Of a stretch of DNA of 56,755 bases, positions 10,139 through 56,755 are shown in pieces. The position numbers and the translations under genes were made by a program. Each line of letters begins with the position of its first letter. Within the stretch, counting starts at the first letter, position 1. The DNA is from a candidate division FCPU426 bacterium (GTDB taxonomy: Bacteria; Oederibacteriota; Muellerivitia; Muellerivitales; Muellerivitaceae): positions 1-56,755 of the forward strand of contig JASHQZ010000167.1 in the NCBI GenBank assembly GCA_030038835.1. Reading direction: 5' to 3'. The notes under the pieces were generated by a model, which was not told the origin of the DNA, searched no databases, and saw nothing but the letters and a program-made list of their open reading frames with translations.

Positions 10139-10155
10139 CTGGGACAGGGGATTGC

Positions 10156-12314: not shown

Positions 12315-12331
12315 GTTTAAGGAGGCTTTCC

Positions 12332-12781: not shown

Positions 12782-12836
12782 GAATTGAATTGCCGTGATT
12801 TTTATCTGGCATTGCCAAACAAAAACCCGCTGCAAC

Positions 12837-32975: not shown

Positions 32976-34310
32976 ATGGAGACCACAATGGCTGAAGGAA
33001 AATCCATCGTTAACATTGGGATGATCGGTTTCGGCAACGTGGGCCAGGGGGTTTACCGCTTGCTGGAAAAGAACCGGACCCTCATCGAAGCCAAGGTCGG
33101 CGCCCAGATCCGGATCAAGAAAATCGCCGTCAAGGACTTGACCAAACAGCGGGAAGTTGCTGTCCCCGAAGGTATGCTGACGGACAAATACGAGGACATC
33201 CTTAACGACGAAGACATTGACGTGGTACTGGAGTTGATGGGGGGGTACGAGCCCGCCAGGACCTACCTTCTCGAAGCCATGAAGAAGGGCAAACATATCG
33301 TTACCGCCAACAAGGCCGTGCTTTCGGTGCATTGGGACGAGATCATCGCCACCGCACGTCAGAATAAGGTGGACATCTATTTCGAGGCCGCGGTCTGCGG
33401 CGGCATTCCGGTCATCCAGGCCATCAACGACGGCCTGGCCCCCAACAACATCACCTCTATCTATGGCATCGTGAACGGCACCACCAACTTCATCCTGCAA
33501 AAGATGACCGAGGAAAAGAAGAGCTTCAAGGAAGCTCTTCAGATGGCCCAGAAGAAAGGCTTGGCCGAGGCCGACCCTACCCTTGACATCAATGGAATGG
33601 ATGCGGCCCACAAGCTGGCCATCCTGGCCTCCTTGGCATTTTCCAAGCGGGTCAAGGTGGAGGACATTTATGTGGAGGGAATCGAGCGCATCACCCTGCA
33701 GGACATCGAATTCGCCAAAGAAGAGTTCGGCCGGGTGGTTAAACTTTTTGCCATCGCGGAGGTAGAAGGCGATGAACTGGAAGTGCGCGTACACCCGACC
33801 CTTATCCCCCAGGAACACCTTTTGGCCAAGGTGGACGGGGAATATAACGGCGTTCTGGTGACCGGTGACTTCGTGGGCACCACCATGTACTACGGCCTGG
33901 GGGCTGGCAACAAGCCCACCGCCTCTGCGGTGATGAGCGACCTCATTTACGTGTGCCGCAGCGTGAGCGACAATGTGGCGGGCGAGATTTCCAACTGCTG
34001 GTTTCTTTCGGATAACCCGCAGATCAAGCGCATCCGGAAAATCGGCGACATCAAGTCCCGTTATTACTTGAAATTCTCAGTCCTGGATCAGGTAGGGGTC
34101 CTTTCGGCCATCGCCCGTATCCTGGGTGAGCACCAGATTTCCATCGCCTCCGTCATCCAAAAGGAACAGAAAAAGGGCGATAAGGTGCCGGTTGTCATCG
34201 TCACCTATGAAGCCCTCGAGAAGAACGTTCAAGAAGCCCTCAAGAAGATCAACGGCCTTCCCTTTATCCAAGAGGAAACGCTTCTTATCCGTATGGATCG
34301 CGGAGAATAA
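32976..34310 (+). CDS. hom: Homoserine dehydrogenase (with C-terminal ACT domain)
   Basis: IGMIGFGNVGQG NAD(P) motif, VTANK, GIVNGTTNFIL, DxxGxDAAHKLAIL. Confidence 0.93.
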   Translation: METTMAEGKSIVNIGMIGFGNVGQGVYRLLEKNRTLIEAKVGAQIRIKKIAVKDLTKQREVAVPEGMLTDKYEDILNDEDIDVVLELMGGYEPARTYLLEAMKKGKHIVTANKAVLSVHWDEIIATARQNKVDIYFEAAVCGGIPVIQAINDGLAPNNITSIYGIVNGTTNFILQKMTEEKKSFKEALQMAQKKGLAEADPTLDINGMDAAHKLAILASLAFSKRVKVEDIYVEGIERITLQDIEFAKEEFGRVVKLFAIAEVEGDELEVRVHPTLIPQEHLLAKVDGEYNGVLVTGDFVGTTMYYGLGAGNKPTASAVMSDLIYVCRSVSDNVAGEISNCWFLSDNPQIKRIRKIGDIKSRYYLKFSVLDQVGVLSAIARILGEHQISIASVIQKEQKKGDKVPVVIVTYEALEKNVQEALKKINGLPFIQEETLLIRMDRGE

Positions 34311-34419: not shown

Positions 34420-35481
34420 ATGGCTTATTGGAAAGGTTTGATCGAGGAATACCGGGCCTACCTGTCGGTCACCGAAAAAACACCCGTTATTACCCTCAAG
34501 GAGGGTGATACGCCGTTGCTCTATGGCCCCCGCATCTCCCGAAAACTTGGGAATGGCGTCAAAGTCTTTTTCAAGTTTGAGGGGTTGAACCCCACCTGTT
34601 CCTTCAAGGACCGGGGCATGACCATGGCTATTTCCAAGGCTGTGGAAGAAGGTTCCAAGGCGGTTATTTGTGCCTCCACGGGCAACACATCGGCCTCTGC
34701 GGCGGCCTATTCGGCCCATGCAGGCATTTCTTGTGCTGTGCTCCTGCCCCATGGCTCCATCGCGTTGGGGAAATTGGCCCAATCCATGATCTACGGTGCC
34801 AAGGTGCTGGCGGTGGAAGGTAGCTTTGACCAGGCCCTGGCCCTGACCCGGCAATTAGCGGACAAGCATCCTATCACCATGGTGAATTCCAATAACCCTT
34901 ACCGCATCGAGGGACAGAAAACCGCGGCCTTTGAGATTGTGGACACCATCGGTGACGCGCCTGAATACCACGCCATCCCCGTTGGTAACGCTGGAAATAT
35001 CACGGCTTATTGGAGGGGTTACAAGGAATACAAGCAGTTGGGTAAGTCCACGAGATTTCCACGTATGTGCGGCTTTCAGGCCGCTGGCGCGGCTCCGATC
35101 GTCAACAAAAAAATAGTAGAGAATCCTCAGACCATTGCCACCGCCATCAAGATCGGGAATCCTTTTTCCTGGAAAAGTGCGGAAGCCGCCCGGGACGAGT
35201 CCCGGGGCCTAATCGAGGCTGTCACAGACGAGGAAATCCTGGAAGCCTACGAGATGCTGGCTTCAATGGAAGGTATTTTCTGCGAACCCGCTTCCGCCGC
35301 CTCCTTGGCTGGGGTCATCAAGAAAAACAAGGAGGGATACTTCATCGACGGCGAAAGGCGGATCGTCTGCACCCTTACCGGGCATGGACTCAAGGACCCG
35401 GATGCGGCGGTGATGAGAAGCACTAAGCCCACGGTTATCAAACCGGATATGGTTGATATTTTGAAAGCCTTGAAGTTGTAA
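34420..35481 (+). CDS. thrC: Threonine synthase (short, canonical type)
   Basis: NPTCSFKDRGMT PLP-lysine motif, ASTGNTSAS, and the hom-thrC context. Confidence 0.93.
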   Translation: MAYWKGLIEEYRAYLSVTEKTPVITLKEGDTPLLYGPRISRKLGNGVKVFFKFEGLNPTCSFKDRGMTMAISKAVEEGSKAVICASTGNTSASAAAYSAHAGISCAVLLPHGSIALGKLAQSMIYGAKVLAVEGSFDQALALTRQLADKHPITMVNSNNPYRIEGQKTAAFEIVDTIGDAPEYHAIPVGNAGNITAYWRGYKEYKQLGKSTRFPRMCGFQAAGAAPIVNKKIVENPQTIATAIKIGNPFSWKSAEAARDESRGLIEAVTDEEILEAYEMLASMEGIFCEPASAASLAGVIKKNKEGYFIDGERRIVCTLTGHGLKDPDAAVMRSTKPTVIKPDMVDILKALKL

Positions 35482-35509: not shown

Positions 35510-36745
35510 GTGGCACTTATCGTTCAAAAATACGGCGGATCGTCGGTGGCCAACGCGGAAAAAATGTTGTCCGTCGCCCGACGCGTCGCTAAGAATAGGA
35601 AAGAAGGGAATGAGGTCGTAGTGGTCGTCTCGGCCCCAGGCGACACCACGGATGAGCTCATCGCCAAAGCCCACCATATAACCGATTCACCCGACGAGAG
35701 GGAGCTGGACGTCCTTTTGGCAACGGGGGAACAACAGTCCATCGCTCTCCTTTCTATTGCCCTCAAAAGTCTTGGTTGCGACGCCATTTCCTTCACGGGG
35801 CCCCAAGTTGGGATCGTGACCGACGACGTCCATACCAAGGCCAGGATTGTGAAGGTGGGCGATTCAAAGATCCGATCCGCCCTTAACTTGGGAAAGGTGG
35901 TGATCGTGGCAGGATTCCAGGGAGAGAACAAGGAACATGAAATCACGACCCTGGGCCGGGGCGGAAGCGACTTGACAGCTGTGGCCATTGCCGCGGCCTT
36001 GAAGGCGGACGTTTGCGAGTTCTACAAGGACGTGGACGGGGTTTTCACGGCCAATCCCTCTGTCGTGAAAGACGCCAAGAAAATTTCGTTTATCAGCTAT
36101 GATGAAATGTTGGAGATGGCCAGCGCAGGGGCCCAGGTTTTGAATGCCCGTTCGGTCGAATTCGCTAAAAATTTCGGCATCAAGATCCACGTGAGGCCGA
36201 CATTCAACGAAAAGGAAGGGACAATCGTCATGCAGGAAACTAAAGCCATGGAAAAGGTGGTTATCAGCGGGGTGACCTATAATAAAAATGAGGCCAAGAT
36301 CACGGTCCGGGGAGTCCCTGACAGGCCCGGTATCGCCTCCATCCTCTTCTCCAAGCTGGGGAGGGCCGGAATCAACGTGGACATGATCATCCAAAACATT
36401 GGGGAAAAAGGCCATTCGGACGTTTCCTTCACCGTGGACAAGTCTGAATTCAAGAAGGCCATGAAGGTGGTTTCAGAGGCTTCCAAGGTCTTGAAGCCCG
36501 CCGGCATTCTTTCGGACGAGGGTATCGCCAAGGTTTCGGTGGTAGGAGTGGGCATGCGGTCCCACTCCGGCGTGGCTGCCAACATGTTTACGGCGCTGGC
36601 GGAAGCGGGCGTAAACATTGAGATGATCTCCACCTCGGAGATCAAGATTTCAGTGGTAATTGACGAAAAAGATGTGGCCAAGGCTGTGGCGGCAATCCAC
36701 AAGAAGTTCAACCTGGGTAAAAAAGTTGTGGGAGTACGTGGCTGA
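35510..36745 (+). CDS. lysC: Aspartate kinase
   Basis: (M)ALIVQKYGGSSV, VVVVSA, GRGGSD, and two C-terminal ACT domains. GTG start. Confidence 0.93.
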   Translation: MALIVQKYGGSSVANAEKMLSVARRVAKNRKEGNEVVVVVSAPGDTTDELIAKAHHITDSPDERELDVLLATGEQQSIALLSIALKSLGCDAISFTGPQVGIVTDDVHTKARIVKVGDSKIRSALNLGKVVIVAGFQGENKEHEITTLGRGGSDLTAVAIAAALKADVCEFYKDVDGVFTANPSVVKDAKKISFISYDEMLEMASAGAQVLNARSVEFAKNFGIKIHVRPTFNEKEGTIVMQETKAMEKVVISGVTYNKNEAKITVRGVPDRPGIASILFSKLGRAGINVDMIIQNIGEKGHSDVSFTVDKSEFKKAMKVVSEASKVLKPAGILSDEGIAKVSVVGVGMRSHSGVAANMFTALAEAGVNIEMISTSEIKISVVIDEKDVAKAVAAIHKKFNLGKKVVGVRG

Positions 36746-36834
36746 AAGAAAATTTTGAATGGTTGAGATCTTCCGACCGAACCTTGGCCGGAAAATTACA
36801 TGAACTCAACACTCAAGACTTAGAAGGTGCAGAA

Positions 36835-38436
36835 GTGGGTGATCAGAAAGTAGTCCTATACGACGCGCTGCTGCGTGAAGGCCCCCAGACCCAAGGCATA
36901 AACCTGTCGGTCGAGGACAAGCTGGCGCTTGCCCAGGCCCTGGATGACCTGGGCCTCCACTATCTGGAGGGGGGCTGGCCCGGGGCCAATCCCAAGGACA
37001 CGGAGTTCTTCAAAAGGGTGAAAAAGCTAAAACTCAAGGCTCGCCTTTCGGCTTTCGGCATGACCCGCCGGGCCAAGCACAAGGCCTATGAGGATACGAA
37101 CCTCCTAAACCTGGTGAAGTCCGACGTTTCCACCATCACGGTGGTGGGGAAGACGTGGGATTTCCATGTGACCAAGGCCCTCGGAATTTCCCTCGAACAA
37201 AACCTCGAGATCATCTATGACACGTTGAAGTTCCTCAAGTCCAAGACTGACGAAGTCTTCTTTGACGCGGAGCATTTTTTCGACGGGTATAAAGCCAATC
37301 CAGAGTTTTCACTGAAATGCCTGGAATCCGCGCTGGAGGGCGGGTCCGATTACCTGGTTCTTTGCGATACCAATGGGGGCTCCCTGCCCGAGGAAATCGA
37401 AGCGGTAGTCACCTGCGTCCACCAGCGCTTTCCCCAGGCCGCGATCGGCATCCATTGCCATAACGACTCGGACCTGGCGGTGGCCAACAGCTTGGCCGCC
37501 CTTTCGGCCGGCGCTACCCAGGTTCAGGGCTGCATGAACGGCTATGGGGAACGGGTGGGGAATACCAATTTGACTTCCTTGATCGCCAACTTGGCCTTGA
37601 AGACGGATTATTCCTTCGTGAAGCCCATAAAGCTGGAAAAGCTCATGGAAGTTTCCCACCGCGTGGATGAAATCCTCAATTTATCTCCACAACCCAACGC
37701 GCCCTACGTGGGCAAGAACGCCTTCACCCACAAGGGCGGGATGCATATTGACGCGATGCGCAAATCCAATAAGGCATATGAGCATGTGGACCCAGCCGAA
37801 GTGGGGAACCAGCGAAAGCTGGTCCTTTCCGACCAGGCGGGCCGCGCGGGCGTTCTACATCAGGCGGGGACCCATAGTATCAAGCTGGGGAAGGATACTC
37901 CGGAAACACATGCCATCATCGACGAAGTGAAAAAAATGGAAAGCGAGGGCTACCAATTCGAGGGGGCCGAGGCTTCCTTTGAGATCCTCCTGAAAAAAGC
38001 GTTGGGCAAACACAAGAGCTTCTTCGATTTGGTCAGTTTCCGGGTGATCGTGGAAAACAGGGGCGATGACAAGCTGGTCTCGGAAGCCACAATCAAGGTC
38101 AAGGTGAACGGTATTTTGGAGAATACCGTGGGGGAGGGTGACGGCCCGGTCAACGCCCTCGACCAGGCCCTCCGCAAGGCCCTGACCAAGTTTTATCCTT
38201 CGCTTAGCGAAGTCCGCCTCACCGACTTCAAGGTCCGTGTCCTGGACGCCAAGGAGGGAACAGCGGCCAAGGTGCGTGTTTTGATCGAAAGCCGGGATAA
38301 AAAAGACGCCTGGGGCACGGTCGGCGTTTCGGAAAACATAATCGAAGCTTCCTGGGACGCCCTGGTGGATTCCATAGATTACAAGTTGTTAAAAGACAGC
38401 GGCTCCAAGAACCCCTCCAAACGGGGCAGGCATTGA
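36835..38436 (+). CDS. cimA: Citramalate synthase / 2-isopropylmalate synthase family protein
   Basis: GGWPGANPKDTEFF, the IHCHND HxH motif and a LeuA-dimer-type C-terminal domain. GTG 36835 is 5 nt after AAGGTG (the ORF track starts at TTG 36763). The N-terminal motif reads DALLREGPQ rather than DTTLRDGxQ. Confidence 0.8.
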   Translation: MGDQKVVLYDALLREGPQTQGINLSVEDKLALAQALDDLGLHYLEGGWPGANPKDTEFFKRVKKLKLKARLSAFGMTRRAKHKAYEDTNLLNLVKSDVSTITVVGKTWDFHVTKALGISLEQNLEIIYDTLKFLKSKTDEVFFDAEHFFDGYKANPEFSLKCLESALEGGSDYLVLCDTNGGSLPEEIEAVVTCVHQRFPQAAIGIHCHNDSDLAVANSLAALSAGATQVQGCMNGYGERVGNTNLTSLIANLALKTDYSFVKPIKLEKLMEVSHRVDEILNLSPQPNAPYVGKNAFTHKGGMHIDAMRKSNKAYEHVDPAEVGNQRKLVLSDQAGRAGVLHQAGTHSIKLGKDTPETHAIIDEVKKMESEGYQFEGAEASFEILLKKALGKHKSFFDLVSFRVIVENRGDDKLVSEATIKVKVNGILENTVGEGDGPVNALDQALRKALTKFYPSLSEVRLTDFKVRVLDAKEGTAAKVRVLIESRDKKDAWGTVGVSENIIEASWDALVDSIDYKLLKDSGSKNPSKRGRH

Positions 38437-42405: not shown

Positions 42406-42434
42406 TTGACAGGGGCAAGCAGGCTGAGTAACAT
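42406..42434 (+). promoter_or_regulatory. Sigma70-type promoter of the riboswitch-controlled transcript
   Basis: TTGACA (42406-42411), exactly 17 nt, then TAACAT (42429-42434), about 22 nt before the aptamer. Confidence 0.5.
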
Positions 42435-42456
42435 TCATTCAACAATTTAGTTAGCG

Positions 42457-42575
42457 CTCTTATCGCGAGTGGCGGAGGGACAGGCCCGTTGATGCCACGG
42501 CAACCGGACCGTAAAGGGTCGTCAGGTGCCAAATCCTGCTCCGGAAAGAAACGACGATCCGGGGAAAGATGAGAG
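42457..42575 (+). promoter_or_regulatory. SAM-I (S-box) riboswitch aptamer
   Basis: P1 is CTCTTATC (42457-42464) paired with GATGAGAG (42568-42575). Conserved core reads GAGTGGCGGAGGGACAGGCCCGTTGATGCCACGGCAACC ... GGTGCCAAATCCTGC ... GAAAGATGAGAG. Confidence 0.9.
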
Positions 42576-42593
42576 ATGGAAATCCAAACCTTA

Positions 42594-42625
42594 AAGGCTT
42601 CCATCTCGGGATGGTGGCCTTTTTT
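42594..42625 (+). terminator. Riboswitch expression-platform terminator
   Basis: AAGGCTTCCATC pairs with GATGGTGGCCTT (one mismatch, one G-U), with a TCGG loop, then TTTTTT. The antiterminator GAGATGGAA (42573-42581) is perfectly complementary to TTCCATCTC (42599-42607) and overlaps the P1 3' strand. Confidence 0.8.
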
Positions 42626-42753
42626 ATTGGCACAGATTTTAGGTGCAGGCGTCAGGTTTTAGCTGACACCTAGAACCTAACACCTGGACGACATCCGAAA
42701 GAAGCAGGGCGGCTTAGGACCTATGCGAGGTCCGCTTAGGAGACGAGAGACAT

Positions 42754-43983
42754 ATGAGCTACGTCAAGGCTTTGAAATGCCGCGAATGCGGCCAAGAATA
42801 CGAAAAAACGGCCAAGTACGTCTGTGAGTTCTGCTTTGGACCTTTGGAAGCGGCCTATGATTACGACAATATCAAGAAGGACATTTCCCGTCAAAAGATC
42901 GCCTCGCGCCCGCTGAATATCTGGCGCTATCGGGAATTTCTGCCTGTGGAAGGCACTCGTTACAACACCCTCGAGGAGGGCTATACCCCCCTTCTCAAGG
43001 CCGAGCGGCTGGGTGAGGAACTGGGGCTGTCCAAGCTTTACGTGAAGAACGATTGTGCCAATCCCACTCATTCCTTCAAGGACCGCGTGGTGGCTGTGGC
43101 CTCCACCCGAGCCCTGGAATTGGGCTTTGACACCCTCGCCTGCGCTTCCACCGGCAACCTCGCCAACGCGGTTTCGGCCTACGGGGCCAAGGGCAAAATG
43201 AAACGCTTTGTATTCATCCCCTCCAACCTGGAACCCAGCAAAGTGACGGCATCGCTCATCTACGATCCGAACCTCATTGGAGTCAACGGCAATTACGACG
43301 ACGTCAACCGCCTTTGCAGCGAAATCGCGGGAAAATACAAATGGGCCTTCGTGAACATCAACATGAGGCCCTATTATGCCGAGGGCTCCAAGACCCTCGG
43401 GTTCGAGACCGCAGAGCAGTTGGGCTGGAAAGCCCCGGATCAAGTCGTCGTTCCCGTGGCTTCCGGCTCTCTTTTAACCAAGATTTGGAAAGGGACACAG
43501 GAATTCATTAAGGTGGGCCTCATTGAAAACAAACCCATGAGGGTTTTTGGCGCCCAAGCCGTCGGCTGTTCGCCGGTAACCACCGCTTATAAGGCCAAGA
43601 CTGACACTTTCCGGCCGGTCAAACCCAATACCATCGCCAAGTCCCTGGCTATCGGCAATCCCGCCGATGGTTTTTACGCCCTGAGAACCATCGCCGATTC
43701 CAATGGTGGGGCTGAGATGGTCACAGACGAGGAAATTGTGGAAGGCATCAAACTGCTAGCCCGCACCGAAGGCATTTTCGCGGAAACCGCTGGGGGTGTC
43801 ACGATCGGATGCCTGAAAAAACTGGCCGAATCAGGGGCCTTGGATCCGGATGCGGTGACTGTGGCTTACGTGACCGGAACAGGCTTGAAAACCCAGGAAG
43901 CGGTGACGGGCCATTTAAGGGAAGTAAAGGTCATCCAGCCCAATCTCGCCGCCTTTGAAGCCACCCAACTGGTCCCGGCCTGA
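42754..43983 (+). CDS. Threonine-synthase-family PLP enzyme with an N-terminal zinc ribbon (second ThrC paralog, SAM-regulated)
   Basis: CRECG-x11-CEFC ribbon, NPTHSFKDRVV PLP-lysine motif, ASTGNLANA, 409 aa. Confidence 0.85.
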   Translation: MSYVKALKCRECGQEYEKTAKYVCEFCFGPLEAAYDYDNIKKDISRQKIASRPLNIWRYREFLPVEGTRYNTLEEGYTPLLKAERLGEELGLSKLYVKNDCANPTHSFKDRVVAVASTRALELGFDTLACASTGNLANAVSAYGAKGKMKRFVFIPSNLEPSKVTASLIYDPNLIGVNGNYDDVNRLCSEIAGKYKWAFVNINMRPYYAEGSKTLGFETAEQLGWKAPDQVVVPVASGSLLTKIWKGTQEFIKVGLIENKPMRVFGAQAVGCSPVTTAYKAKTDTFRPVKPNTIAKSLAIGNPADGFYALRTIADSNGGAEMVTDEEIVEGIKLLARTEGIFAETAGGVTIGCLKKLAESGALDPDAVTVAYVTGTGLKTQEAVTGHLREVKVIQPNLAAFEATQLVPA

Positions 43984-43987
43984 ACCC

Positions 43988-44434
43988 ATGAAAAAACTAT
44001 TTTTGGGGCTCGCGGTGCTATGGGTCTCCGGGAGGGTCTGGGCGGTTGCGCCAGAAGATTATTACAATGCCGGCATGGATTTATTTAAAAACCGGGACTA
44101 TGACAAGGCTATTCAGTATTTCCACGCGGCGGTGGACGAGAGGCCTGATTACTGGCAGGCCTACCAATTCCTAGGTGAGGCTTATTACCAGGATGCCAAC
44201 CGGACCGAGGCTGTGCTGGCCATGGAGAAAAGCCTCCAGTTGCATCCTGACAACCCGGACCTCCGTAAGTTTATCTCCAAAATCAGGAAAGATAGCCCCT
44301 GGGCTTCCAACAATTTTTCAACGGTTTTTCTTCCAATTTTGGCTATCCTCCTTTCCCTCTTGAGCCTCGGCTGGACGGGTTATTGGACTTGGAGCCATTC
44401 AACTTTCCATTCCAAGCCGCCCTCCAATCCGTAG
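43988..44434 (+). CDS. TPR-repeat protein with a signal peptide and C-terminal TM
   Basis: MKKLFLGLAVLWVSG signal. TPR consensus (YYNAGMDLFKNRDYDKAIQYFHAAV...). It starts 5 nt after the preceding stop. Confidence 0.6.
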   Translation: MKKLFLGLAVLWVSGRVWAVAPEDYYNAGMDLFKNRDYDKAIQYFHAAVDERPDYWQAYQFLGEAYYQDANRTEAVLAMEKSLQLHPDNPDLRKFISKIRKDSPWASNNFSTVFLPILAILLSLLSLGWTGYWTWSHSTFHSKPPSNP

Positions 44435-44558
44435 AAAAGAAAAAATTGGTCAAAAAAGCTCGCACAACCTGTTTTTTTCTTTAACTTGGACTAATTTAAA
44501 ACGGTTTAAGGGCATTAGCTTAGGGAAAAGGATTTTCAGAGGTTTACCGGAAAAGAGA

Positions 44559-44885
44559 CTACCGAGGAGCCCTTTCCATGCGAGCTTTCGGTTTGATCGT
44601 CTTTGAAGCTTTAAGACGTGGCCTGCCTCTTTGGGCCGTCAAGTTACGGGGCTGTTTTAGGAAATTCTCTACTGGGCAGTCCAGTTGAAAACCGAGGTTA
44701 TAAAGGGTCTTCAGTGTGATATTACGGCCTGACTCCCAGTATTGGACCATTTGGATGGAGACGCCGGCCTGCTCCGCCAATTGGAACTGGGTGTAGCCTT
44801 TTTGGGCGCGGATTTCCCCGATCTTTCTGCCAACTTTTTTTAAGAAGCGCTGGTCGGAGTTCGAGGCGTCGATATAAGGTGTCAT
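44559..44885 (-). CDS. XRE-family helix-turn-helix transcriptional regulator
   Basis: GEIRAQKGYTQFQLAEQAGVSIQMVQYWESGRNITLKTL HTH_3 pattern, with a basic C-terminal tail. Confidence 0.75.
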   Translation of the reverse strand: MTPYIDASNSDQRFLKKVGRKIGEIRAQKGYTQFQLAEQAGVSIQMVQYWESGRNITLKTLYNLGFQLDCPVENFLKQPRNLTAQRGRPRLKASKTIKPKARMERAPR

Positions 44886-45184
44886 ACGGCCTCTCTTATA
44901 AGTTTACTTTTGCACAGAAAAAACCAATGAAGGATTAGTAATTAGGGGTCCAAAGCGGGTCCCGAAGGCTGGCCCCCTAGTTCCCCTTTCGGTTTTCTAC
45001 CCCCGACCCTTCAGCTGAAGTTGAGAGCGTGACAAGATTGTCTAAGTGTTCCATCACTTTAAATGGGGCCGCTTTAAATATCAACGCTGTGACCCTGGGT
45101 AAAACCGTTTACTTGCAGGATGCTAGGGAATTTGTTTTCCGCCAAAAATTTTCTTTTCGGATTCTTTGGCCCTAGAATGACCCT

Positions 45185-47233
45185 ATGCCGGAAAACCATC
45201 TAGAAGACAATCAACCGCGGAAACGGTTCGCGACTAAAACTTTGTTTGCGCTTACGGTACTGGTTCTATCCATACTGCTTGTCTCGGTTTATCTGAGGAT
45301 TCAAGGGGAAAAGAGGCGGAACCGGCCCGCCAGCCTCGAAACTCCGGCTTTTCAAACCCTACCATTGGGCAGCGTCAAACCTGAAGGATGGCTCTTGGGG
45401 CAACTCCAATTGCAGGCGGCAGGACTGACCGGGCACTTAGACGAGTTTTGGCCGGACGTGGAAAACAGCGGTTGGATCGGAGGACATGCCGAGGGTTGGG
45501 AGAGGGCCCCCTATTGGCTTGATGGTTTGGTGCCACTGGCCTACCAAACCGGGGATAAGCGACTCCAGCGCAAAGCCAAACGGTGGATGGACTATATCCT
45601 ATCGCACCAACTTTCGGACGGCTGGCTGGGACCGGAGCAAAGTCCGCCTCCAACCGGCGCTCCGCCCGGTTCTCCCGGACCCGATCCACGCGACCCCTGG
45701 CCCCAGTTCATCATCCTGAAAGTCCTAGCCCAATACGAGGAGGCCACGGGCGATCCCCGGGTGATCCCAGCCATGGAAAAGGACCTCTGGTGCCTTGACA
45801 ACCAACTGAACCAGAGACCGCTTTTCAGCTGGAATTATTTCCGATGGGGGGATTTCCTGGTCAGCCTATTTTGGCTTTACGACCGAACCCATGAACCCTG
45901 GCTTTTGGACCTGGCCGTCAAGGCCGCGAACCAGGGCTACAATTGGCCCAAATACTTCTCCGACCTGCCCATGAAGGATAAGACCCCGGTATGGAACTGG
46001 TACACCCATGGGGTGAACAACGCCATGGGACTCAAGGTGGCGGCTCTTCTTTTCCGACTGACCGGCGATGAAAAATACAAAAAGCTTTCCTTGGAAGCCC
46101 TCCGGGAACTGGACCGTTACCACGGGGAGGCGAACGGGCTTTTCAGCGCGGACGAGTGCCTGGCGGGACGGAATCCCTCCCAGGGCACGGAACTTTGCAC
46201 CATCGTTGAAACTATGTATTCGTTGGAAACGGATTTAGCCGTTTTGGGGGATGTGGAGGACGCGGACCGCCTGGAAAAGATAGCCTTCAACGCCCTCCCG
46301 GCCGCCTGTTCGGCGGATTATTGGGAACACCAATATGACGAACAAGCCAACCAGGTGGCCTGCGTTTACGTGCCACGCCCGGTTTACACCACCAACCGGG
46401 GGGAGGCCAACCTCTTCGGCTTGGAGCCCCAATACGGCTGTTGCACAGCCAATTTCCACCAAGGATGGCCCAAATTTACCTCTCATTTGTGGATGGCAAC
46501 CCCCGATGGGGGCCTTGCAGCCGTGGTTTATGCCCCCTCGTCGGTGGAAACCCAGATATCCGGCCAGACGGTGAAGGTGGAATTAACCACCGATTATCCT
46601 TTTAGCGAAGAATTGACCTTTAAGGTGACGACGCAAAATCCTTTGGAATTCCCGCTTTATTTGCGCATCCCCGAGTGGGCACAAGGAGCGACCTTGACCT
46701 TGCCCGACGGGAGCTCCCAAAAACCGGACACTGGGAGTTTTCAAAAGGTCTTGCGCAAATGGAACGGGACCGAGACCCTCCAGCTTCACCTCCCCATGAC
46801 CTTCAAGGTTCAAAGGTGGTTTCATGACGCAGTGAGCGTGGAGCGGGGGCCACTGGTATTCAGCCTGGGGTTGAAGGAAATATGGAAACCCGCCCGGCCT
46901 TTTTTCTTTCAACCAAAGGGTGAGCACAAAAATGATTATTTTGTAGTACCCGACAGCCCTTGGAATTACGCTTTGGCGCTTAACCCAGGGAACCCCGAAA
47001 AATTCTTAACCCTTCAGGATGGGACTTTACAAGGGGATCCCTTCACATTGGAAGGAGCACCCCTCAAGGTAACCGTGAAAGGAAGGCGTTTGGACGATTG
47101 GGCCTTCGCCACCGGAGCCGCCGAGCCCCCACCCCCAAGCCCGGTGGAAAGCGCCGAGCCCGAGGAAGACTTGACGCTCGTGCCTTACGGCTCCACACGC
47201 CTGAGGGTGACAGAGTTTCCACTTTTGAAGTGA
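45185..47233 (+). CDS. Glycoside hydrolase family 127-like (DUF1680, beta-L-arabinofuranosidase-type), membrane-anchored
   Basis: N-terminal TM. An E-x-C motif (GTELCTIVE) and a CC motif (YGCCTANFHQGWPKF) match the Zn/catalytic Cys arrangement I recall for HypBA1-type enzymes. Confidence 0.7.
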   Translation: MPENHLEDNQPRKRFATKTLFALTVLVLSILLVSVYLRIQGEKRRNRPASLETPAFQTLPLGSVKPEGWLLGQLQLQAAGLTGHLDEFWPDVENSGWIGGHAEGWERAPYWLDGLVPLAYQTGDKRLQRKAKRWMDYILSHQLSDGWLGPEQSPPPTGAPPGSPGPDPRDPWPQFIILKVLAQYEEATGDPRVIPAMEKDLWCLDNQLNQRPLFSWNYFRWGDFLVSLFWLYDRTHEPWLLDLAVKAANQGYNWPKYFSDLPMKDKTPVWNWYTHGVNNAMGLKVAALLFRLTGDEKYKKLSLEALRELDRYHGEANGLFSADECLAGRNPSQGTELCTIVETMYSLETDLAVLGDVEDADRLEKIAFNALPAACSADYWEHQYDEQANQVACVYVPRPVYTTNRGEANLFGLEPQYGCCTANFHQGWPKFTSHLWMATPDGGLAAVVYAPSSVETQISGQTVKVELTTDYPFSEELTFKVTTQNPLEFPLYLRIPEWAQGATLTLPDGSSQKPDTGSFQKVLRKWNGTETLQLHLPMTFKVQRWFHDAVSVERGPLVFSLGLKEIWKPARPFFFQPKGEHKNDYFVVPDSPWNYALALNPGNPEKFLTLQDGTLQGDPFTLEGAPLKVTVKGRRLDDWAFATGAAEPPPPSPVESAEPEEDLTLVPYGSTRLRVTEFPLLK

Positions 47234-47397
47234 GAAATTGGCAAGTTATGGATCGGTCCTTGTCCACGACGGAGACGGGTTTATTCCGGTAGCTTGGCAG
47301 GAAACTAGCCGCAGCGGCTTTCCAATGTTTTCCCCTGGAAATCAAGGGGGGCTTTCGTCATAATCCAGGTTTAATACTGGTTTCAGGAGGAATTTCC

Positions 47398-47694
47398 ATG
47401 GCTGTGAAAGTTCTCATTCCAACCCCTTTGAGGAACCTCACCAACAACCAGGCGGAGGTCGATGCCGAAGGGGCCACCATTTCCGACCTGATCAACAACT
47501 TGGGGAAGAATTACAACGGGTTGAAGGACCGCCTTTGCGACGAAAACGGCAAAATCCGCCGATTCGTGAACATTTACCTGAACGAAGAAGACATCCGTTT
47601 CCTGCAAGGGGAAGCCACGGCCGTCAAGCCCGGGGACCAGGTTTCCATCGTTCCCGCGATAGCGGGAGGATCAGGTGAAAATAAAGACATTTGA
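47398..47694 (+). CDS. CysO/MoaD/ThiS-family ubiquitin-like sulfur-carrier protein with a 7-residue extension after the Gly-Gly
   Basis: [13 protein letters not shown]...[18 protein letters not shown]...[20 protein letters not shown] closely parallels M. tuberculosis CysO as I recall it. Strong AGGAGG SD. Confidence 0.85.
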
Positions 47695-47742: not shown

Positions 47743-47988
47743 ATGGCGGATATTAAGAAACTCATCGAACTGGATTATCCCACCGAACTGGTCACCGAAC
47801 CGGTGCTTTCCAAAATGATCAAGAAATATAACGTCACGGTCAACATCCGCCGGGCCTCCATCACCAAGGGTTTCGGCTACGTCCAAATGGAGATCGAGGG
47901 AGAAGAAAAAGAAGTGCAAAAGGCCCTCGACAATCTTTCTAAACAGGGAATCGACGTTAATCCCATTGTTAAAGACATTGTCGAGTAA
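47743..47988 (+). CDS. Stand-alone NIL-domain protein
   Basis: An 81-aa protein, EPVLSKMIKKYNVTVNIRRASI...GYVQMEIEGEE..., matching the NIL (MetN C-terminal-type) pattern. Confidence 0.7.
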   Translation: MADIKKLIELDYPTELVTEPVLSKMIKKYNVTVNIRRASITKGFGYVQMEIEGEEKEVQKALDNLSKQGIDVNPIVKDIVE

Positions 47989-47992
47989 GGGG

Positions 47993-48601
47993 ATGGCAGA
48001 CACCCAACCTCAAGAAAGATATTCCCGCCAGGTCATCCTCCCGGGAGTCGGGCAGGAAGGCCAGGCCAAGTGGGCCGCATCCAGGATTCTTCTAGCAGGG
48101 GAAGGCGTGATCCTTACGGCAGCCGAGACGGCCTTAAAGTCCAGCGGTATTTCCAACCTCCTGCAATGGAAAACCGACTCCCCTCAAGCTCCCATTGGAG
48201 ATGCGGACCTAACCCTGGTCCTCACGGAAAATTCCGATTTCCGGCGGCGCGCCAGCCGCTGGCTCCGGAAAAACCGAAGGCCTGCCCTTTTCGCCTGGTG
48301 CGCGGGAAGCGGCTACGCCCTTTTCGCGGCTTCCCATTGGGAAAACCATTGTCCGTGCCTGGAATGCTTTGAAACCCTCAATCCAAAGGCCTTCGCTGGC
48401 GGAACGCCTACGACCCAACGCCTATTAGGCGCCTTGGCGGCCTCTGAGGCGTTGCAGTGGATTTTGAAGGGAAGCACGCCCTTGGCAAGCAAGGTTTGGG
48501 TCACATCCCTTGATTCGGGAGTCTCCTTTCATCACGAAGTAAAAGCCTCCGACAAATGCCCGGTCCGGCTGTCGGAGGAAGGGGCGGTTGTAACCCCGTG
48601 A
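47993..48601 (+). CDS. Degenerate ThiF/MoeB (E1)-like protein lacking the nucleotide-binding motifs
   Basis: It retains ERYSRQVILPGVGQEGQ, DLTLVLTENSDFRRR and the CPCLEC CxxC. The Gly-rich loop reads LLAGEGVILTA, and the DxDxVxxSNLxRQ segment is absent. 202 aa. Confidence 0.65.
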   Translation: MADTQPQERYSRQVILPGVGQEGQAKWAASRILLAGEGVILTAAETALKSSGISNLLQWKTDSPQAPIGDADLTLVLTENSDFRRRASRWLRKNRRPALFAWCAGSGYALFAASHWENHCPCLECFETLNPKAFAGGTPTTQRLLGALAASEALQWILKGSTPLASKVWVTSLDSGVSFHHEVKASDKCPVRLSEEGAVVTP

Positions 48602-49551
48602 CCTATAACCGCTACCCTTTAGCCACCGACATCACCCAAATCATCGGCAACACCCCCCTGCTGAAGCTGCAACGCATTCCGGAAAAGGGGGGGGCCCAGA
48701 TCCTTTGCAAACTGGAATTTTACAATCCCGGCGGAAGCGTGAAGGACCGCATCGCCCTGGCCATGATCGAGGACGCCGAAAAGCGCGGTATCCTAAAACC
48801 CGGTGGAACCTTGGTGGAGCCCACCAGCGGCAATACGGGCATCGGTTTGGCTTTGGTGTGCGCCCAGAGGGGCTACCGGTTGATCCTGGTCATGCCCGAG
48901 GATATGAGCCTGGAGCGCCGGGTACTGCTGCGGGCCTATGGCGCCGAATTGGTTTTGACCCCCGCCCAGGGATTGATGGCGGAGGCCGTCCGAAAGGCCA
49001 AAGAGATCAAGCAGCAACACCCGGATTATTTCATGCCGGAGCAATTCGCCAACCGGGCTAATCCCGAAGCGCATAAAAGGACCACCGCGCCCGAGATTGA
49101 AAAGGACACCGGAGGACAATTGGACGCCTTCGTAGCCGGCATTGGAACAGGCGGGACTATCACGGGAGTGGGCGAATATTTCAAGGCCAAGGACCCCAAA
49201 ATAAGGATGGTGGGCGTGGAACCGGCGGCCTCTGCCGTACTTTCAGGCGGCAAGGCGGGTATTCATCGAATTCAAGGCATTGGGGCGGGGTTCGTGCCAC
49301 CGGTCTTGAACCGGTCGATCTTGGACGAGGTGGCAACGGTGGAAGACAAGGAAGCCTTCCTCATGACCAAACGGTTGGCGCGGGAAGAAGGGTTGCTTTT
49401 GGGTATTTCCTCTGGAGCCAATGTGGCGGTGGCGGTCAAGGTGGCCCAGAGGCTTGGGCCCGAGGCCCGCGTGGTCACCCTTTGCTGCGATATGGGGGAA
49501 AGGTATTTCAGCTTGGAAGAGGAATTCGAAAGGCAAGAAAAGAGACATTAA
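48598..49551 (+). CDS. Cysteine synthase (CysK/CysM family PLP enzyme)
   Basis: NPGGSVKDRIA PLP lysine, TSGNTGIGLA, GTGGTITG. GTG 48598 overlaps the upstream TGA (GTGA coupling). The ORF track starts at 48556. Confidence 0.9.
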   Translation: MTYNRYPLATDITQIIGNTPLLKLQRIPEKGGAQILCKLEFYNPGGSVKDRIALAMIEDAEKRGILKPGGTLVEPTSGNTGIGLALVCAQRGYRLILVMPEDMSLERRVLLRAYGAELVLTPAQGLMAEAVRKAKEIKQQHPDYFMPEQFANRANPEAHKRTTAPEIEKDTGGQLDAFVAGIGTGGTITGVGEYFKAKDPKIRMVGVEPAASAVLSGGKAGIHRIQGIGAGFVPPVLNRSILDEVATVEDKEAFLMTKRLAREEGLLLGISSGANVAVAVKVAQRLGPEARVVTLCCDMGERYFSLEEEFERQEKRH

Positions 49552-53216: not shown

Positions 53217-54701
53217 ATGATATTTCCCCGTAGGTTTTTTTTATGTAAAACACGCTCTCAGTTGGTCCTTCTTTGGGTCGGTTTGTGTTTAAACTCAACG
53301 GCTTTTGCCCAGAGCTCCGCCCCTTACCTGAAATCCGCCACCCTTTACCTCGCGGTCGACGGCTGGGCCGATATTTGGCTGAATGGCATCCCCATCCGGG
53401 AAAGCCAGCCCTCCACGCCCGCGTCCAAGGGCTTTCAAGTTGTCCAGTGCCTGCCGAAACACCTCTGCTATTTCCAAAACGATAATGTCCTGGCCATTGA
53501 AAACGCCAATGCCTATCACGACCCGCAACCGCTGAACGGCCAAATCGGATTGTCTTACATCCTGAGGCTGCGCTTTTCCGACGGGACACAGAGGGTCCTG
53601 TCCAGCAACGAAACGGCGGAGCATAAAGCCTGCTATCTTCCCAACCGGGAAAGCGAAGAACCTCCGGGTTGGCAAAAGCGGCCCTTTCGCGATGAAGCCT
53701 GGTTTACGCCTTCTGCCATTGGCTGGTCGATCCCGGCGGTGGCGCCGCTGACGGACCCTGAAACCGGCCAACCCATCCAATTTCTATCGGCTTCCGGGGA
53801 AACTTTTAAGGCCCAATACGAGGGTGAAAAGCACCTTTATCGGAGGGAATTTCAGCTAAACATCGCCCCCAATCCCCTTTGCGCCCAAGACCCGATGAAC
53901 ACCTTATCAGGGCGGCCGGACAAGGTTCCTCCACCCACGCCAACGGAAGTTTCCGTACCCCAACGGATTCCGTCCCCGCCCAGCTTTACGCCTTCACCAA
54001 CGGAAACTCCGTTGCCGGCGCCGGCCTTGGTTTGGAAATCAATCCTTGCGCCCACGGCCACCTTTACCTCATGGCCGGCATCCACTTGGACCACCAGCCC
54101 TCAGGACACACCCACTCCAGGTTGGAAGGCGATCGCCCCCCCGGCGCCAACCGAGACCTTTGGATTTGCTCCGGTTTGGACTCCGGTGCCACGTCCGATG
54201 CCCACTTTTTCCCCCCAACCGACGGTCCGGCTTCTTGTAGGGAAACAAAGGCGATTCCTGCCGACTCCCACGCCCATTCCTGGTTTTGAAGCCACCAGCC
54301 GGGCCGACCCTTTTAAAATGAGGGCACCAACTCTGGTACCGACGGTTACGACAACCCGCTCAACAACCGCTGTGGCCGACATGCCGGATGCGGCAAGTCC
54401 CCAAACCGTTGTTTTCCAAAGGACAACTGCTAATATTTACATTAGTTTCGCCGATGGGCCCGGAGTTTACCGGTTGGAAGTAGTGGATGGCACCGGCGCC
54501 CACTTGAGGAATTTATTTGATAAACGCGTTGTGGCGGAACAAGACGAATGGGTGGCATGGGACGGCAAAGACGATGGAGGGAAGGACCTGCCCCCGGGGC
54601 CCTATACTGTCCTCTACACGAAGGATGGGGAGAATCTCAATCATCTTGTACTTATTAAAACCGCACCGGGGCAAGGGGACTCCAAAGGGAATGGCTCTTG
54701 A
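53217..54701 (+). CDS. Secreted protein: N-terminal jelly-roll-like domain, P/T-rich linker of about 170 aa, C-terminal FlgD-Ig-like domain
   Basis: Signal peptide, then LAVDGWADIWLNGIPI, then a proline/threonine-rich region. C-terminus is VYRLEVVDGTG...WDGKDDGGKDLPPGPYTV. Confidence 0.55.
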   Translation: MIFPRRFFLCKTRSQLVLLWVGLCLNSTAFAQSSAPYLKSATLYLAVDGWADIWLNGIPIRESQPSTPASKGFQVVQCLPKHLCYFQNDNVLAIENANAYHDPQPLNGQIGLSYILRLRFSDGTQRVLSSNETAEHKACYLPNRESEEPPGWQKRPFRDEAWFTPSAIGWSIPAVAPLTDPETGQPIQFLSASGETFKAQYEGEKHLYRREFQLNIAPNPLCAQDPMNTLSGRPDKVPPPTPTEVSVPQRIPSPPSFTPSPTETPLPAPALVWKSILAPTATFTSWPASTWTTSPQDTPTPGWKAIAPPAPTETFGFAPVWTPVPRPMPTFSPQPTVRLLVGKQRRFLPTPTPIPGFEATSRADPFKMRAPTLVPTVTTTRSTTAVADMPDAASPQTVVFQRTTANIYISFADGPGVYRLEVVDGTGAHLRNLFDKRVVAEQDEWVAWDGKDDGGKDLPPGPYTVLYTKDGENLNHLVLIKTAPGQGDSKGNGS

Positions 54702-54908: not shown

Positions 54909-55607
54909 ATGAGAAATAGGATTTTAGTGGTGGGAGTGGGCGGTCTGGGCTGCCCCGCCGCTTTAGCCCTCGCCGAGGCGGGCGCGGAGAACCTGGGCCT
55001 AATGGACCCCGACCAGGTGGAACTTTCCAACCTGCACCGGCAGATCCTTTATTCCGAAAAGGACTTGGGGCGGTCCAAGGCCGAGGCCGCCGCAGACTAC
55101 CTCCGAAAACGTTACCGCCCCCTTCGTACGGTTCCCATTGTGGAAGCTTTGAACGCCCAAAACGCTGAAAAATTCATTTCAGCCTACGACCTCGTCATTG
55201 ACGGCCTGGATCGATTGGAAAAAAAGTTTTTTTTGAATGACTGGTGCGTCAAGATGGGGAAACCCTTCGTCCATGCCGGAGTAGTCCGATTCGAAGGGCA
55301 AGTCCTGCCGGTTCTTCCGGGCCAAACCGCCTGCTTACGTTGCCTGGTCCCCAAAATCCCCCCCCCGTTCGCCATGCCCACCTGCCAGGATGCGGGCGTT
55401 TTAGGTTCCTTTTCCCAGGCCATCGGTTATCTCCAGGCCCACGAGGCATTGCGCCTGTCCGAAAACCGGGGTCCTTTGCTGCTTTGGAAAGTCAATGCCC
55501 AGGAGAGGCAAGCGAGGTCGCTCATTTCCCGGCGCAATCCTGTCTGTGAAGCTTGCGGCCAAGGCCATGTTGAGAACGAAATGACCCGGCCCCTTTGCGC
55601 TTTCTAA
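54909..55607 (+). CDS. ThiF/MoeB/HesA-family E1-like adenylyltransferase (minimal N-terminus)
   Basis: ILVVGVGGLGCPAALALAEAG Gly-rich loop, DPDQVELSNLHRQ, ACLRC and CEAC zinc motifs. An in-frame TGA at 54894-54896 prevents any longer N-terminus. Confidence 0.85.
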   Translation: MRNRILVVGVGGLGCPAALALAEAGAENLGLMDPDQVELSNLHRQILYSEKDLGRSKAEAAADYLRKRYRPLRTVPIVEALNAQNAEKFISAYDLVIDGLDRLEKKFFLNDWCVKMGKPFVHAGVVRFEGQVLPVLPGQTACLRCLVPKIPPPFAMPTCQDAGVLGSFSQAIGYLQAHEALRLSENRGPLLLWKVNAQERQARSLISRRNPVCEACGQGHVENEMTRPLCAF

Positions 55608-55685: not shown

Positions 55686-56755
55686 AGGGACTTATATACT
55701 TCACTCCCTTTTTCCTTATTTCCGTTGCTTGGCCTTTTTCTTTCTCTTTTTTGGATTCGGTTTGTAGGCCAAAACCTTGTCCAAAAGTGCGTCAAATTCC
55801 TTTTTCTTCTTCAAGCTGTCTCCCTGTGTTCCTCTTTTCCAATAAGGCGCTTATAGGTTAGCCGCTTGCCAGTGGAGCGATCAATGAGGCTTTCAATCCG
55901 TTCCAGCCTAGGACGTTCTACGTTGCCTTCGTTGAGCCTAAATGTGAACTCATTGACGTATCGGGCTAAATGCTTGCGGTCTACATGGTGATAGACCCCA
56001 TTTAAACCCCGCTTCATAACAGCCCAAACGCTTTCAATGCTGTTTGTGGTTACTTGACCCCGGACATATTCCTTGTGGCTATGATTCACGCTTTCGTGCT
56101 TGTAAACGCCATCTAAGGGGTTGTAGCCGTGGTTGTCGTCAGTATTGATAGTGCTACCTTCCTTGACGTTACAAGCCACGGTTTCAGACAGAATGACACT
56201 ATTGACGGCCTTAATCGGCATGGCCTTAGTTCTTCCACCCCGTTCACGCATACCAAGGACAGGTGTTTTGGTGATGGTGCTTTTGCCCCTGTTGCCAGGA
56301 ATGCGCTTATCGGCGTGTTTGTTTTCTTCCTTGCCGCCAACGTAGGTTTCGTCAATCTCCACTATGCCGCTTAACTGGGAAAAATCATGTCCACAAGCCT
56401 CGCGGATACGGCCTAGCAGAAACCAAGCGGTCTTTTGAGTTACGCCGATCTCTTTGGAAAGCTGAATCGAGGAAATGCCCTTCCTGGCCGTGACCAAGAG
56501 GTACATGGCATAAAGCCATTTGTGCAAAGGAACATGGCTTTTCTCAAAGACCGTACCAGTTCTAACGGTGAAGTCCTCAATGCAATAGTTACATCGATAG
56601 AAGCCGTCTTTTCTCACGGTGATCTTATCGCCCTTTTTGCAATATGGGCAAACAGGGCCGTTAGGCCAAAGGCGTTTCTCAATGTAAACTCTGGCCGTCT
56701 CTTGGTCTGGAAACATTTCGAAAAGCTTGAGGGTGTTTAATTTCTCATTTTTCAT
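55686..56755 (-). mobile_element. IS1595-family insertion sequence, truncated by the window edge; the inner boundary is approximate
   Basis: It contains the transposase gene. GC drops to about 47% (28 of 60 at 56101-56160). A hairpin AAGGGA/TCCCTT (55685-55710) lies downstream of the transposase on the minus strand. Terminal repeats cannot be defined because the other end is outside the window. Confidence 0.55.
55811..56755 (-). CDS. IS1595-family (ISXO2-like) transposase
   Basis: N-terminal zinc ribbon CPYCKK...YRCNYC, an HTH (ISSIQLSKEIGVTQKTAWFLLGRI) and a DDE-type domain (VEIDETYVGG...). The ATG is the last three bases of the window. Confidence 0.9.
   Translation of the reverse strand: MKNEKLNTLKLFEMFPDQETARVYIEKRLWPNGPVCPYCKKGDKITVRKDGFYRCNYCIEDFTVRTGTVFEKSHVPLHKWLYAMYLLVTARKGISSIQLSKEIGVTQKTAWFLLGRIREACGHDFSQLSGIVEIDETYVGGKEENKHADKRIPGNRGKSTITKTPVLGMRERGGRTKAMPIKAVNSVILSETVACNVKEGSTINTDDNHGYNPLDGVYKHESVNHSHKEYVRGQVTTNSIESVWAVMKRGLNGVYHHVDRKHLARYVNEFTFRLNEGNVERPRLERIESLIDRSTGKRLTYKRLIGKEEHRETA

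Follow-up and report, generated by a model that had tools for sequence, protein, structure and literature searches.

Why should a second homolog of threonine synthase be placed under a riboswitch for S-adenosylmethionine (SAM), in a stretch of DNA that already encodes a canonical threonine synthase 8 kb upstream? The question is raised by the gene at 42754..43983 of a stretch of 56,755 nucleotides from a candidate division FCPU426 bacterium (GenBank assembly GCA_030038835.1, contig JASHQZ010000167.1, positions 1 to 56,755 of the forward strand), which as a whole is referred to here as the window. A first-pass annotation, made from the letters alone, had proposed that the product is a candidate carrier-dependent homocysteine synthase with a role in methionine rather than threonine synthesis. 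The clade to which the enzyme belongs, its residues and its linkage to ThiS-family carrier genes support that proposal. On these sequence comparisons, the locus is probably a SAM-repressed metM gene, the product of which would be a MetM-type homocysteine synthase that depends on a sulfur carrier protein. It is a system of a kind already described (MetM/MetO, published in 2024), not a new one. The features on which the argument is built are the following.

34420..35481, + strand: canonical thrC within hom-thrC-lysC, by TIGR00260 and tree
42406..42434, + strand: promoter-like site TTGACA-17-TAACAT, by consensus match
42457..42575, + strand: SAM-I (S-box) aptamer, P1 to P4, by RF00162 and model R1
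42573..42607, + strand: predicted antiterminator hairpin, by forced fold and comparison with the relative L002
42593..42625, + strand: predicted intrinsic terminator, hairpin and T-run, by folding and conservation in L002
42626..42753, + strand: leader with AGGAG, by sequence and comparison with L002
42754..43983, + strand: metM-type gene for a ThrC-family enzyme dependent on pyridoxal 5′-phosphate (PLP), with an N-terminal four-Cys ribbon, predicted to be an O-phosphohomoserine-using homocysteine synthase, by hidden Markov models, tree and residues

The MetM/MetO system, which the first-pass annotation had described correctly, was reported by Hasebe et al. (2024, Appl Environ Microbiol 90:e01247-24). 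That work, for which PMC12172450 and a GapMind 2026 preprint are the sources used here, concerns a homocysteine synthase that depends on the MetO thiocarboxylate and uses O-phosphohomoserine. According to the same two citing texts, a SAM riboswitch lies upstream of metM in Streptomyces albulus, and in the account of the preprint MetM is frequently misannotated as threonine synthase. The window shares with the S. albulus system a ThrC-homologous PLP enzyme beside a canonical ThrC and a SAM-I riboswitch directly upstream of its gene.

The riboswitch was identified in an Rfam scan of the whole window. The SAM-I family RF00162 matches 42457..42575 (+) with 84.1 bits (gathering score 44.4; E 1.8e-18) and covers the model completely (1-108/108), in agreement with the complete element read earlier from the letters; the strands of the aptamer P1 helix are CTCTTATC/GATGAGAG. 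The window aptamer is also the top-scoring match of R1, a covariance model built in this work from four aptamers, with the window sequence among its training set. The sequence TTGACA-17-TAACAT, which had been named as the promoter, is present at 42406..42434 and agrees with the consensus at 10 of 12 positions, as a consensus match only: promoter-like sites number five in the region, compared with 1.9 ± 1.4 in shuffled sequences.

Folding of 42457..42632 yields a minimum-energy structure (-66.8 kcal/mol) that combines the closed aptamer with a hairpin at 42593..42622. This hairpin alone has an energy of -16.3 kcal/mol; its core, GGCU.CCAUC-UCGG-GAUGG.GGCC, contains a single U.U mismatch, and it extends into the T-run TTTTTT at 42620..42625, as expected from the terminator noted previously. 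A 9-bp antiterminator helix can be formed between GAGAUGGAA (42573..42581) and UUCCAUCUC (42599..42607), enclosing a loop of 17 nucleotides (nt). It shares 7 nt, UUCCAUC, with the 5′ arm of the terminator, and when it is forced the terminator is lost, at -60.5 kcal/mol. The same two hairpins are found in L002, a 91%-identical relative, with a perfect terminator stem of 10 bp; in the isolated platform of L002 the antiterminator helix is the minimum-energy fold. The expression platform is predicted to link closure of P1 to gene expression through the mutually exclusive antiterminator and terminator. At high SAM levels, SAM would bind to the aptamer, P1 would close, the terminator 42593..42625 would form, and transcription would stop before the gene. 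At low SAM levels, the antiterminator 42573..42607 would capture the 5′ arm of the terminator, allowing read-through into 42754..43983 and the TPR gene that follows it. An OFF-switch responding to SAM fits a gene of the methionine pathway, not one of the threonine pathway.

The S-box leaders of met, cys and SAM genes in Bacillota use an aptamer of this family and likewise switch between terminator and antiterminator, but their conventional targets are metX, metY, metE and metK, whereas the target in the window is metM. Between terminator and start codon the leader (42626..42753) exceeds that of L002 by about 80 nt; AGGAG is located 10 nt before the ATG. Inspection of this leader by eye indicates two small hairpins, around 42653..42669 and 42719..42735.

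The product of 42754..43983 has 409 residues and contains a PALP domain (224 bits) and a ribbon with the spacing C9-x2-C12-x11-C24-x2-C27, so that the earlier description as a threonine-synthase-family PLP enzyme with a CxxC-x11-CxxC motif is accurate. With canonical threonine synthases (TIGR00260; PDB entries 6cgq, 2zsj, 1uim and 2d1f) it shares fold-type II, the lysine of the SFKDR motif, the S-T-G-N loop and, presumably, the substrate O-phosphohomoserine. It differs from them by an additional N-terminal zinc-ribbon region of 55 residues, by residue replacements that extend over its whole clade, and by an identity of 35%. The nearest structures in the PDB are ordinary 350-residue threonine synthases without a ribbon, and the alignment with them starts at residue 56; no structure of MetM is present in the PDB. 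All database relatives of the enzyme that bear a name are labelled threonine synthase. The canonical thrC gene (34420..35481), found where the first-pass annotation had placed it, scores 313.8 bits with TIGR00260 and is flanked by hom (32976..34310) and lysC (35510..36745). The gene that follows hom-thrC-lysC, at 36763..38436, is not leuA but encodes a citramalate synthase, with 714 bits for TIGR00977 (cutoff 450), which points to synthesis of isoleucine from citramalate, independently of threonine.

In a neighbour-joining tree with 200 bootstraps the window enzyme is not placed among bona fide threonine synthases. It belongs to a clade of 29 sequences with 100% bootstrap support that includes the metM-type enzymes of Streptomyces sp. 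L078 and Nonomuraea L001 as well as Nitrospirota sequences, while the window ThrC, its orthologs and the 365-residue ThrCs of Nitrospirota form a separate clade, also with 100% support. Corrected distances from the window enzyme are at most 0.70 within its clade and at least 1.2 outside it. The identities are 55.5% to the Streptomyces L078 enzyme, 57.8% to that of Nonomuraea L001 and 35.4% to the window ThrC. Among the best 120 database matches to the L078 enzyme (86-94% identity) every one with an organism name is from Streptomyces, which makes it likely that the characterised S. albulus enzyme is a member of this clade. The four-Cys ribbon is present in all clade members. It was considered as a marker for MetM and rejected, as a Cys-rich N-terminus is also found in ThrC-like proteins of haloarchaea, Chlorohelix and Aliarcobacter, which, like a ribbon-bearing protein of Azospirillum, fall outside both clades.

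When 86 members of the clade are compared with 17 canonical ThrCs (numbered as in Bacillus subtilis ThrC), the catalytic framework is seen to have been kept and its surroundings changed. The PLP lysine K61 is retained as K109 in the window enzyme, and so is the S84-T85-G86-N87 loop. Other positions, each invariant within its own group, differ between the two: T88 is replaced by L136, S155 by N203, N157 by R205, R160 by Y208, W248 by G306 and D322 by T380, and the G187-N188-A189-G190 loop of ThrC has become A-S-G-S, which includes N188S. At T88, S155, N157, R160, N188 and W248 the replacing residues are 95-100% conserved among the 86 clade members. Several of the changed residues in ThrC presumably hold the substrate phosphate, which after elimination would direct water to the beta carbon. 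The pattern would fit an enzyme that keeps the substrate but alters the fate of the intermediate, and the clade-specific changes are candidates for what turns the ThrC scaffold from one that adds water to the beta carbon into one that adds sulfur to the gamma carbon.

Given its divergence from ThrC, the remodelling of its active-site region and the single characterised member of its family, the enzyme might also carry out some other gamma-replacement on O-phosphohomoserine, such as the formation of cystathionine from cysteine (compare the plant cystathionine gamma-synthase), or a different reaction, for example that of cysteate synthase. This is highly improbable. The cysteate synthase model TIGR03844 gives 73.2 bits against a cutoff of 324.9 and was rejected for the product of 42754..43983, no cystathionine beta-lyase gene was found nearby, and the conserved linkage to a ThiS-type carrier argues for thiocarboxylate chemistry.

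That linkage is evident from a survey in which an alignment of the window enzyme and relatives was run against one genome per species. The survey yielded 80 loci (54-65% identity) from Nitrospirota, Elusimicrobiota, Omnitrophota, Dehalococcoidia, Anaerolineae, Syntrophobacterales and many Actinomycetota, including Streptomyces, Streptosporangium and Solirubrobacterales. In 72 of the 80 the next gene downstream of the enzyme homolog is ThiS-like. A SAM-I aptamer, as detected by model R1, lies directly upstream at 55, namely all Actinomycetota and one Anaerolineae genome; R1 detects none upstream at the surveyed loci of Nitrospirota, Elusimicrobiota, Omnitrophota and Dehalococcoidia.

Two actinomycete loci (enzymes 55.5-57.8% identical to that of the window) have the compact order riboswitch, ThrC-like gene, ThiS-like gene, which is also the layout that the two citing papers ascribe to metM-metO of S. 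albulus. The loci are those of Streptomyces sp. L078 and Nonomuraea gerenzanensis L001; in the latter an RF00162 match of 68.7 bits precedes a ThrC-like gene with a four-Cys ribbon and a gene for a 91-residue ThiS protein ending in AGG. In L001 the start codon follows 13 nt after the aptamer, and no T-run follows the aptamer in L001, L078 or L034, which suggests control of translation initiation; L043 has a T-run. The window platform is thus of the terminator type, in contrast to that of several actinomycete loci, which is apparently translational. L001 was found by a protein search of a plasmid collection. Its record, NZ_LT559118.1, is filed as 'plasmid I' with 10 annotated features, and its length of 11.85 Mb suggests a chromosome.

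In Nitrospirota the surroundings of the gene connect the enzyme with its proposed substrate. A HomK-type alternative homoserine kinase, a kinase that produces O-phosphohomoserine, is encoded at 7 of the 13 Nitrospirota loci, and at 8 loci in all with the metagenome-assembled genome L022; several of these loci have a canonical thrC in the string as well. In L009/L010 the string at 7509..13362 comprises genes for a JAB peptidase, the MetM-type enzyme, ThiS, a NIL protein, canonical ThrC, the HomK-type (phosphoglycerate-mutase-like) kinase and the aspartate kinase LysC, and related strings of the Nitrospirota type occur at L011, L015-L017 and L020-L022. The JAB gene is located directly upstream of the enzyme gene in L009, L010, L011 and L015. 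Since such a string joins the producer and both consumers of O-phosphohomoserine, it ties the enzyme to the metabolism of this compound.

In the window the putative carrier gene is separated from the enzyme gene, and the region concerned contains the following features.

43984..47397, no strand: lineage-specific insertion with a TPR gene, an HTH gene and a GH127-like gene, by synteny with L002 and L005
43988..44434, + strand: TPR protein, signal or membrane segment at the N-terminus and membrane segment at the C-terminus, leading gene of the insertion, by family match
44559..44885, - strand: HTH gene, convergent, part of the insertion block
45185..47233, + strand: GH127-like gene, part of the insertion block
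47398..47694, + strand: MetO-type ThiS-family sulfur carrier, by ThiS family and identity to adjacent carriers
47743..47988, + strand: stand-alone NIL-domain protein of 81 residues, by PF09383 (61 bits)
47966..48601, + strand: degenerate ThiF-like protein (ThiF′), by TIGR02356 positions 1-48
48556..49551, + strand: CysK-type O-acetylserine sulfhydrylase, by TIGR01139 and PDB matches
54909..55607, + strand: ThiF/MoeB-type adenylyltransferase of 232 residues, candidate carrier activator, by TIGR02356 positions 22-202

The first-pass annotation had pointed to a CysO-like carrier 3.4 kb downstream. This gene, 47398..47694, starts 3415 nt after the stop codon of the enzyme gene and belongs to the ThiS family, and its role as partner of the enzyme is supported by synteny. 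In L005, L007 and L009, with enzymes 66-72% identical to that of the window, the orthologous ThiS gene begins 24-32 nt past the enzyme gene (27 nt in L005), and the window carrier shares 71%, 71% and 63% identity, respectively, with their products. L007 and the Nitrospirota locus L009 have ThiS and NIL genes directly 3′ of the enzyme gene. In L005 an RF00162 riboswitch (91.1 bits) is followed by the order metM-thiS-NIL-thiF′-cysK-thiF and then by sulfate-assimilation genes, and the genes upstream of the enzyme in L005/L006 (72% identical) are the same as those in the window: hom, thrC, lysC, cimA, murI, a thioredoxin-like gene, fur and greA. The relatives L002-L004 (91% identical) have the arrangement of the window, i.e. 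enzyme, TPR gene, a variable block and ThiS-NIL-ThiF′-CysK; in L002 the gap between enzyme and ThiS is 6627 nt and contains partly different genes.

The adjacency of ThiS and enzyme genes in L005 and its kin identifies 43984..47397 as an insertion into an ancestral operon, the content of which differs even between the window and L002. The TPR gene is present in L002-L004 and absent from that position in L005, L007 and L009. As it starts 4 nt after the stop codon of the enzyme gene, it rides on the SAM-controlled transcript; the co-transcription claimed earlier therefore stands, whereas the gene no longer lacks an explanation, being part of a lineage-specific insertion. No functional tie of the TPR gene to methionine is apparent, and it would seem to be a hitch-hiker of the insertion. 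The carrier operon is now cut off from the riboswitch by the gene on the opposite strand. Neither RF00162 nor R1 matches the window more than once, so that a second riboswitch before the carrier operon was not found, and a promoter-like site at 47336..47364, before this operon, is no better than chance. The history proposed for the locus would start from a single SAM-controlled operon of metM and metO-NIL-thiF′-cysK-thiF, as in L005, which was split by the insertion such that only metM, together with the TPR gene, would have been left under the riboswitch.

The window carrier, like the Streptomyces-type carriers, is a ThiS-family protein with a GG motif, and it is 54% identical to that of L078. 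It ends in AIAGG followed by a seven-residue tail, SGENKDI (47683..47694), in contrast to the actinomycete carriers, most of which end at GG and others at GGC. The residues after GG in the window, L002, L005, L007, L009 and L078 are SGENKDI, VR, I, C, NSQEVI and C, respectively. A tail beyond GG implies processing by a peptidase, and the AGGC end of the L078 carrier is consistent with maturation of MetO by Mec, to which the GapMind text refers. In the proposed mechanism, the tail of the window carrier would be removed by a JAMM-type peptidase, after which the carrier would be adenylated and sulfurated by a ThiF-type enzyme, for which 54909..55607 is the candidate. The enzyme would take O-phosphohomoserine, the substrate of threonine synthase, phosphate would leave, and sulfur from the C-terminal thiocarboxylate of the carrier would be added at the gamma carbon to give homocysteine.

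Sulfur delivery by a protein thiocarboxylate also underlies the CysO-CysM-Mec-MoeZ system of Mycobacterium tuberculosis and the HcyS-HcyF-HcyD-MetY system of Wolinella. These systems resemble that of the window in having a ThiS-like carrier, activation of the ThiF type, a PLP-dependent acceptor enzyme and JAMM processing, which in the window is implied by the tail. The window acceptor is, however, a ThrC homolog, neither an O-phosphoserine sulfhydrylase of the CysM type nor an enzyme of the MetY type.

Several observations weigh against a MetM-type function. The product of 42754..43983 passes the cutoffs of two NCBI equivalog models for threonine synthase (TIGR00260, 288.9 bits against 167.1; NF006050, 304 against 303). 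Its link to the characterised S. albulus MetM runs via another Streptomyces species and the published operon description. For a Microcystis homolog, 51.6% identical to MetM, PMC12172450 reports threonine synthase and deaminase activities in vitro and no rise in methionine upon induction; given this homolog, the members of the clade may differ in function. The overlap of the antiterminator with the 3′ strand of P1 is 3 nt only (42573..42575), so that its main competitor is the terminator, with P1 involved at the edge only; of the earlier claim that a 9-bp antiterminator competes with P1, the helix holds and the competition is confined to that edge. The metO gene is not adjacent to the enzyme gene, with a gap of 3414 nt (about 3.4 kb) between them. 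Finally, no JAB-domain match, as expected for a JAMM/Mec peptidase, is found in the 57-kb window, and neither a rhodanese-containing MoeZ nor a homoserine kinase is encoded in it.

The passed equivalog cutoffs, the threonine synthases among the closest PDB relatives and the in vitro activities of the cyanobacterial family member (PMC12172450) would suit a second genuine threonine synthase, or a threonine synthase with deaminase activity, whose expression is tied to SAM by chance. This explanation is nevertheless quite unlikely. Since MetM is often misannotated as threonine synthase, as the GapMind preprint states, passing TIGR00260 and NF006050 does not discriminate between the two functions. 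A canonical thrC is already present in the window and in its relatives, the paralog falls into a distinct clade with full support, and residues invariant in ThrC are replaced throughout that clade. The ThiS carrier gene that follows the homolog in 72 of 80 loci would be of no use to a threonine synthase, and repression by SAM has the wrong sign for steering O-phosphohomoserine to threonine.

The distance of the carrier gene, its position behind a convergent gene and beside cysK, and the lack of Mec and MoeZ in the window bear on the sulfur donor. They would be compatible with an O-phosphohomoserine sulfhydrylase that uses free sulfide or another small donor, with the ThiS cluster serving cysteine synthesis or another pathway. 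This too is unlikely. In L007 and Nitrospirota ThiS and NIL genes follow the enzyme gene without cysK, which indicates that the conserved partner of the carrier is the enzyme, and the window ThiS is orthologous, with 63-71% identity, to carriers adjacent to the enzyme. The window CysK, moreover, is of the ordinary O-acetylserine sulfhydrylase type, a known user of free sulfide: it scores 440 bits with TIGR01139 (cutoff 351), and all 60 PDB matches listed are named as cysteine synthase/O-acetylserine sulfhydrylase type or related enzymes, with 2egu and 2q3b at the top. A carrier-dependent homocysteine synthase thus remains the preferred assignment. Mec and MoeZ may be encoded elsewhere in the genome; the genes metA, metX, metY, metB, metC and thrB are likewise not found in the window.

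The less ordinary details of the locus are a NIL protein, of a kind that accompanies MetM/MetO outside Actinomycetota, and an activating enzyme of the ThiF type that is apparently split; the NIL protein and the degenerate ThiF partner were not found in any actinomycete locus surveyed. The 81-residue NIL protein contains a conserved NIRRA motif and no conserved Cys, and weakly resembles the C-terminal NIL domain of MetN, the ATPase of the methionine importer. The MetN domain binds methionine and requires the asparagine of its NI(L/R) motif to do so. NIL domains are also present in the unrelated DUF39 route to homocysteine. A NIL gene is linked to MetM/ThiS in 21 of the 80 loci, from Nitrospirota, Elusimicrobiota, Omnitrophota, Dehalococcoidia and one Syntrophobacterales genome, i.e. 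in at least five phyla. The linkage persists through changes of gene order (enzyme-ThiS-NIL, enzyme-NIL-ThiS and enzyme-ThiS-ThiF-NIL), and this persistence is evidence for a functional link. Among the 80 loci none has both NIL gene and riboswitch, 21 have the NIL gene only, 55 the riboswitch only and 4 neither, a distribution that is heavily confounded by phylogeny; the lineages of the window and of L005 carry both. It is plausible that the NIL protein is a feedback subunit sensing methionine, SAM or homocysteine, as a protein-level counterpart of the riboswitch. In the accounts that the two citing papers give of the Streptomyces system, as far as these accounts extend, a NIL protein is not mentioned.

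The two ThiF-related proteins appear to be complementary. ThiF′ (47966..48601), which has orthologs in L002 and L005, keeps the N-terminal RYSRQ segment and has AGEGVIL in place of the GxGGxG nucleotide loop. The protein encoded by 54909..55607 begins exactly at GVGGLG, with a stop codon just upstream, and has neither the N-terminal segment nor, unlike MoeZ, a rhodanese domain; in the operon of L005 its ortholog is the gene after cysK. The ThiF pair of L005, at 9810..10484 and 11401..12078, shows the same complementary arrangement. ThiF and ThiF′ may together make up a heterodimeric enzyme for activation of the carrier, with an active subunit that lacks the arginine-containing N-terminal helix and an inactive one that keeps only this helix. 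Such an arrangement would resemble the two-subunit E1 enzymes of eukaryotes. Taken together, a third, possibly sensing, NIL component of MetM/MetO systems outside Actinomycetota and a heterodimeric carrier-activating ThiF are put forward tentatively, as a possibility that is more doubtful than the assignment of the enzyme itself.

The locus does not overturn current understanding. It is of interest that the enzyme-carrier pair, often with a SAM riboswitch, is found in several phyla besides Actinomycetota. If recognised as MetM-type, genes labelled 'threonine synthase' would fill an apparent gap in methionine biosynthesis in many uncultured lineages, among them Nitrospirota, Omnitrophota, Elusimicrobiota, Dehalococcoidia and the lineage of the window itself, which bears on the inference of auxotrophy and cross-feeding from metagenome-assembled genomes. 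With respect to operon evolution, the locus illustrates that an operon controlled by a riboswitch can be split by an insertion, with the result that an unrelated gene comes to be controlled by SAM.

Three minor observations concern other parts of the window. Just upstream of the ThiF gene, 53217..54701 encodes a secreted-looking protein of 494 residues with a hydrophobic N-terminus, rich in proline and threonine and without a Pfam match. Near the sulfur-carrier cluster, an IS1595-family transposase gene (55811..56755, - strand) runs off the window end. At 11256..12781, pheS is followed by an open reading frame of 156 residues that matches no family; Tad-pilus genes on the other strand come next, and pheT, which would be expected after pheS, is missing from this place.

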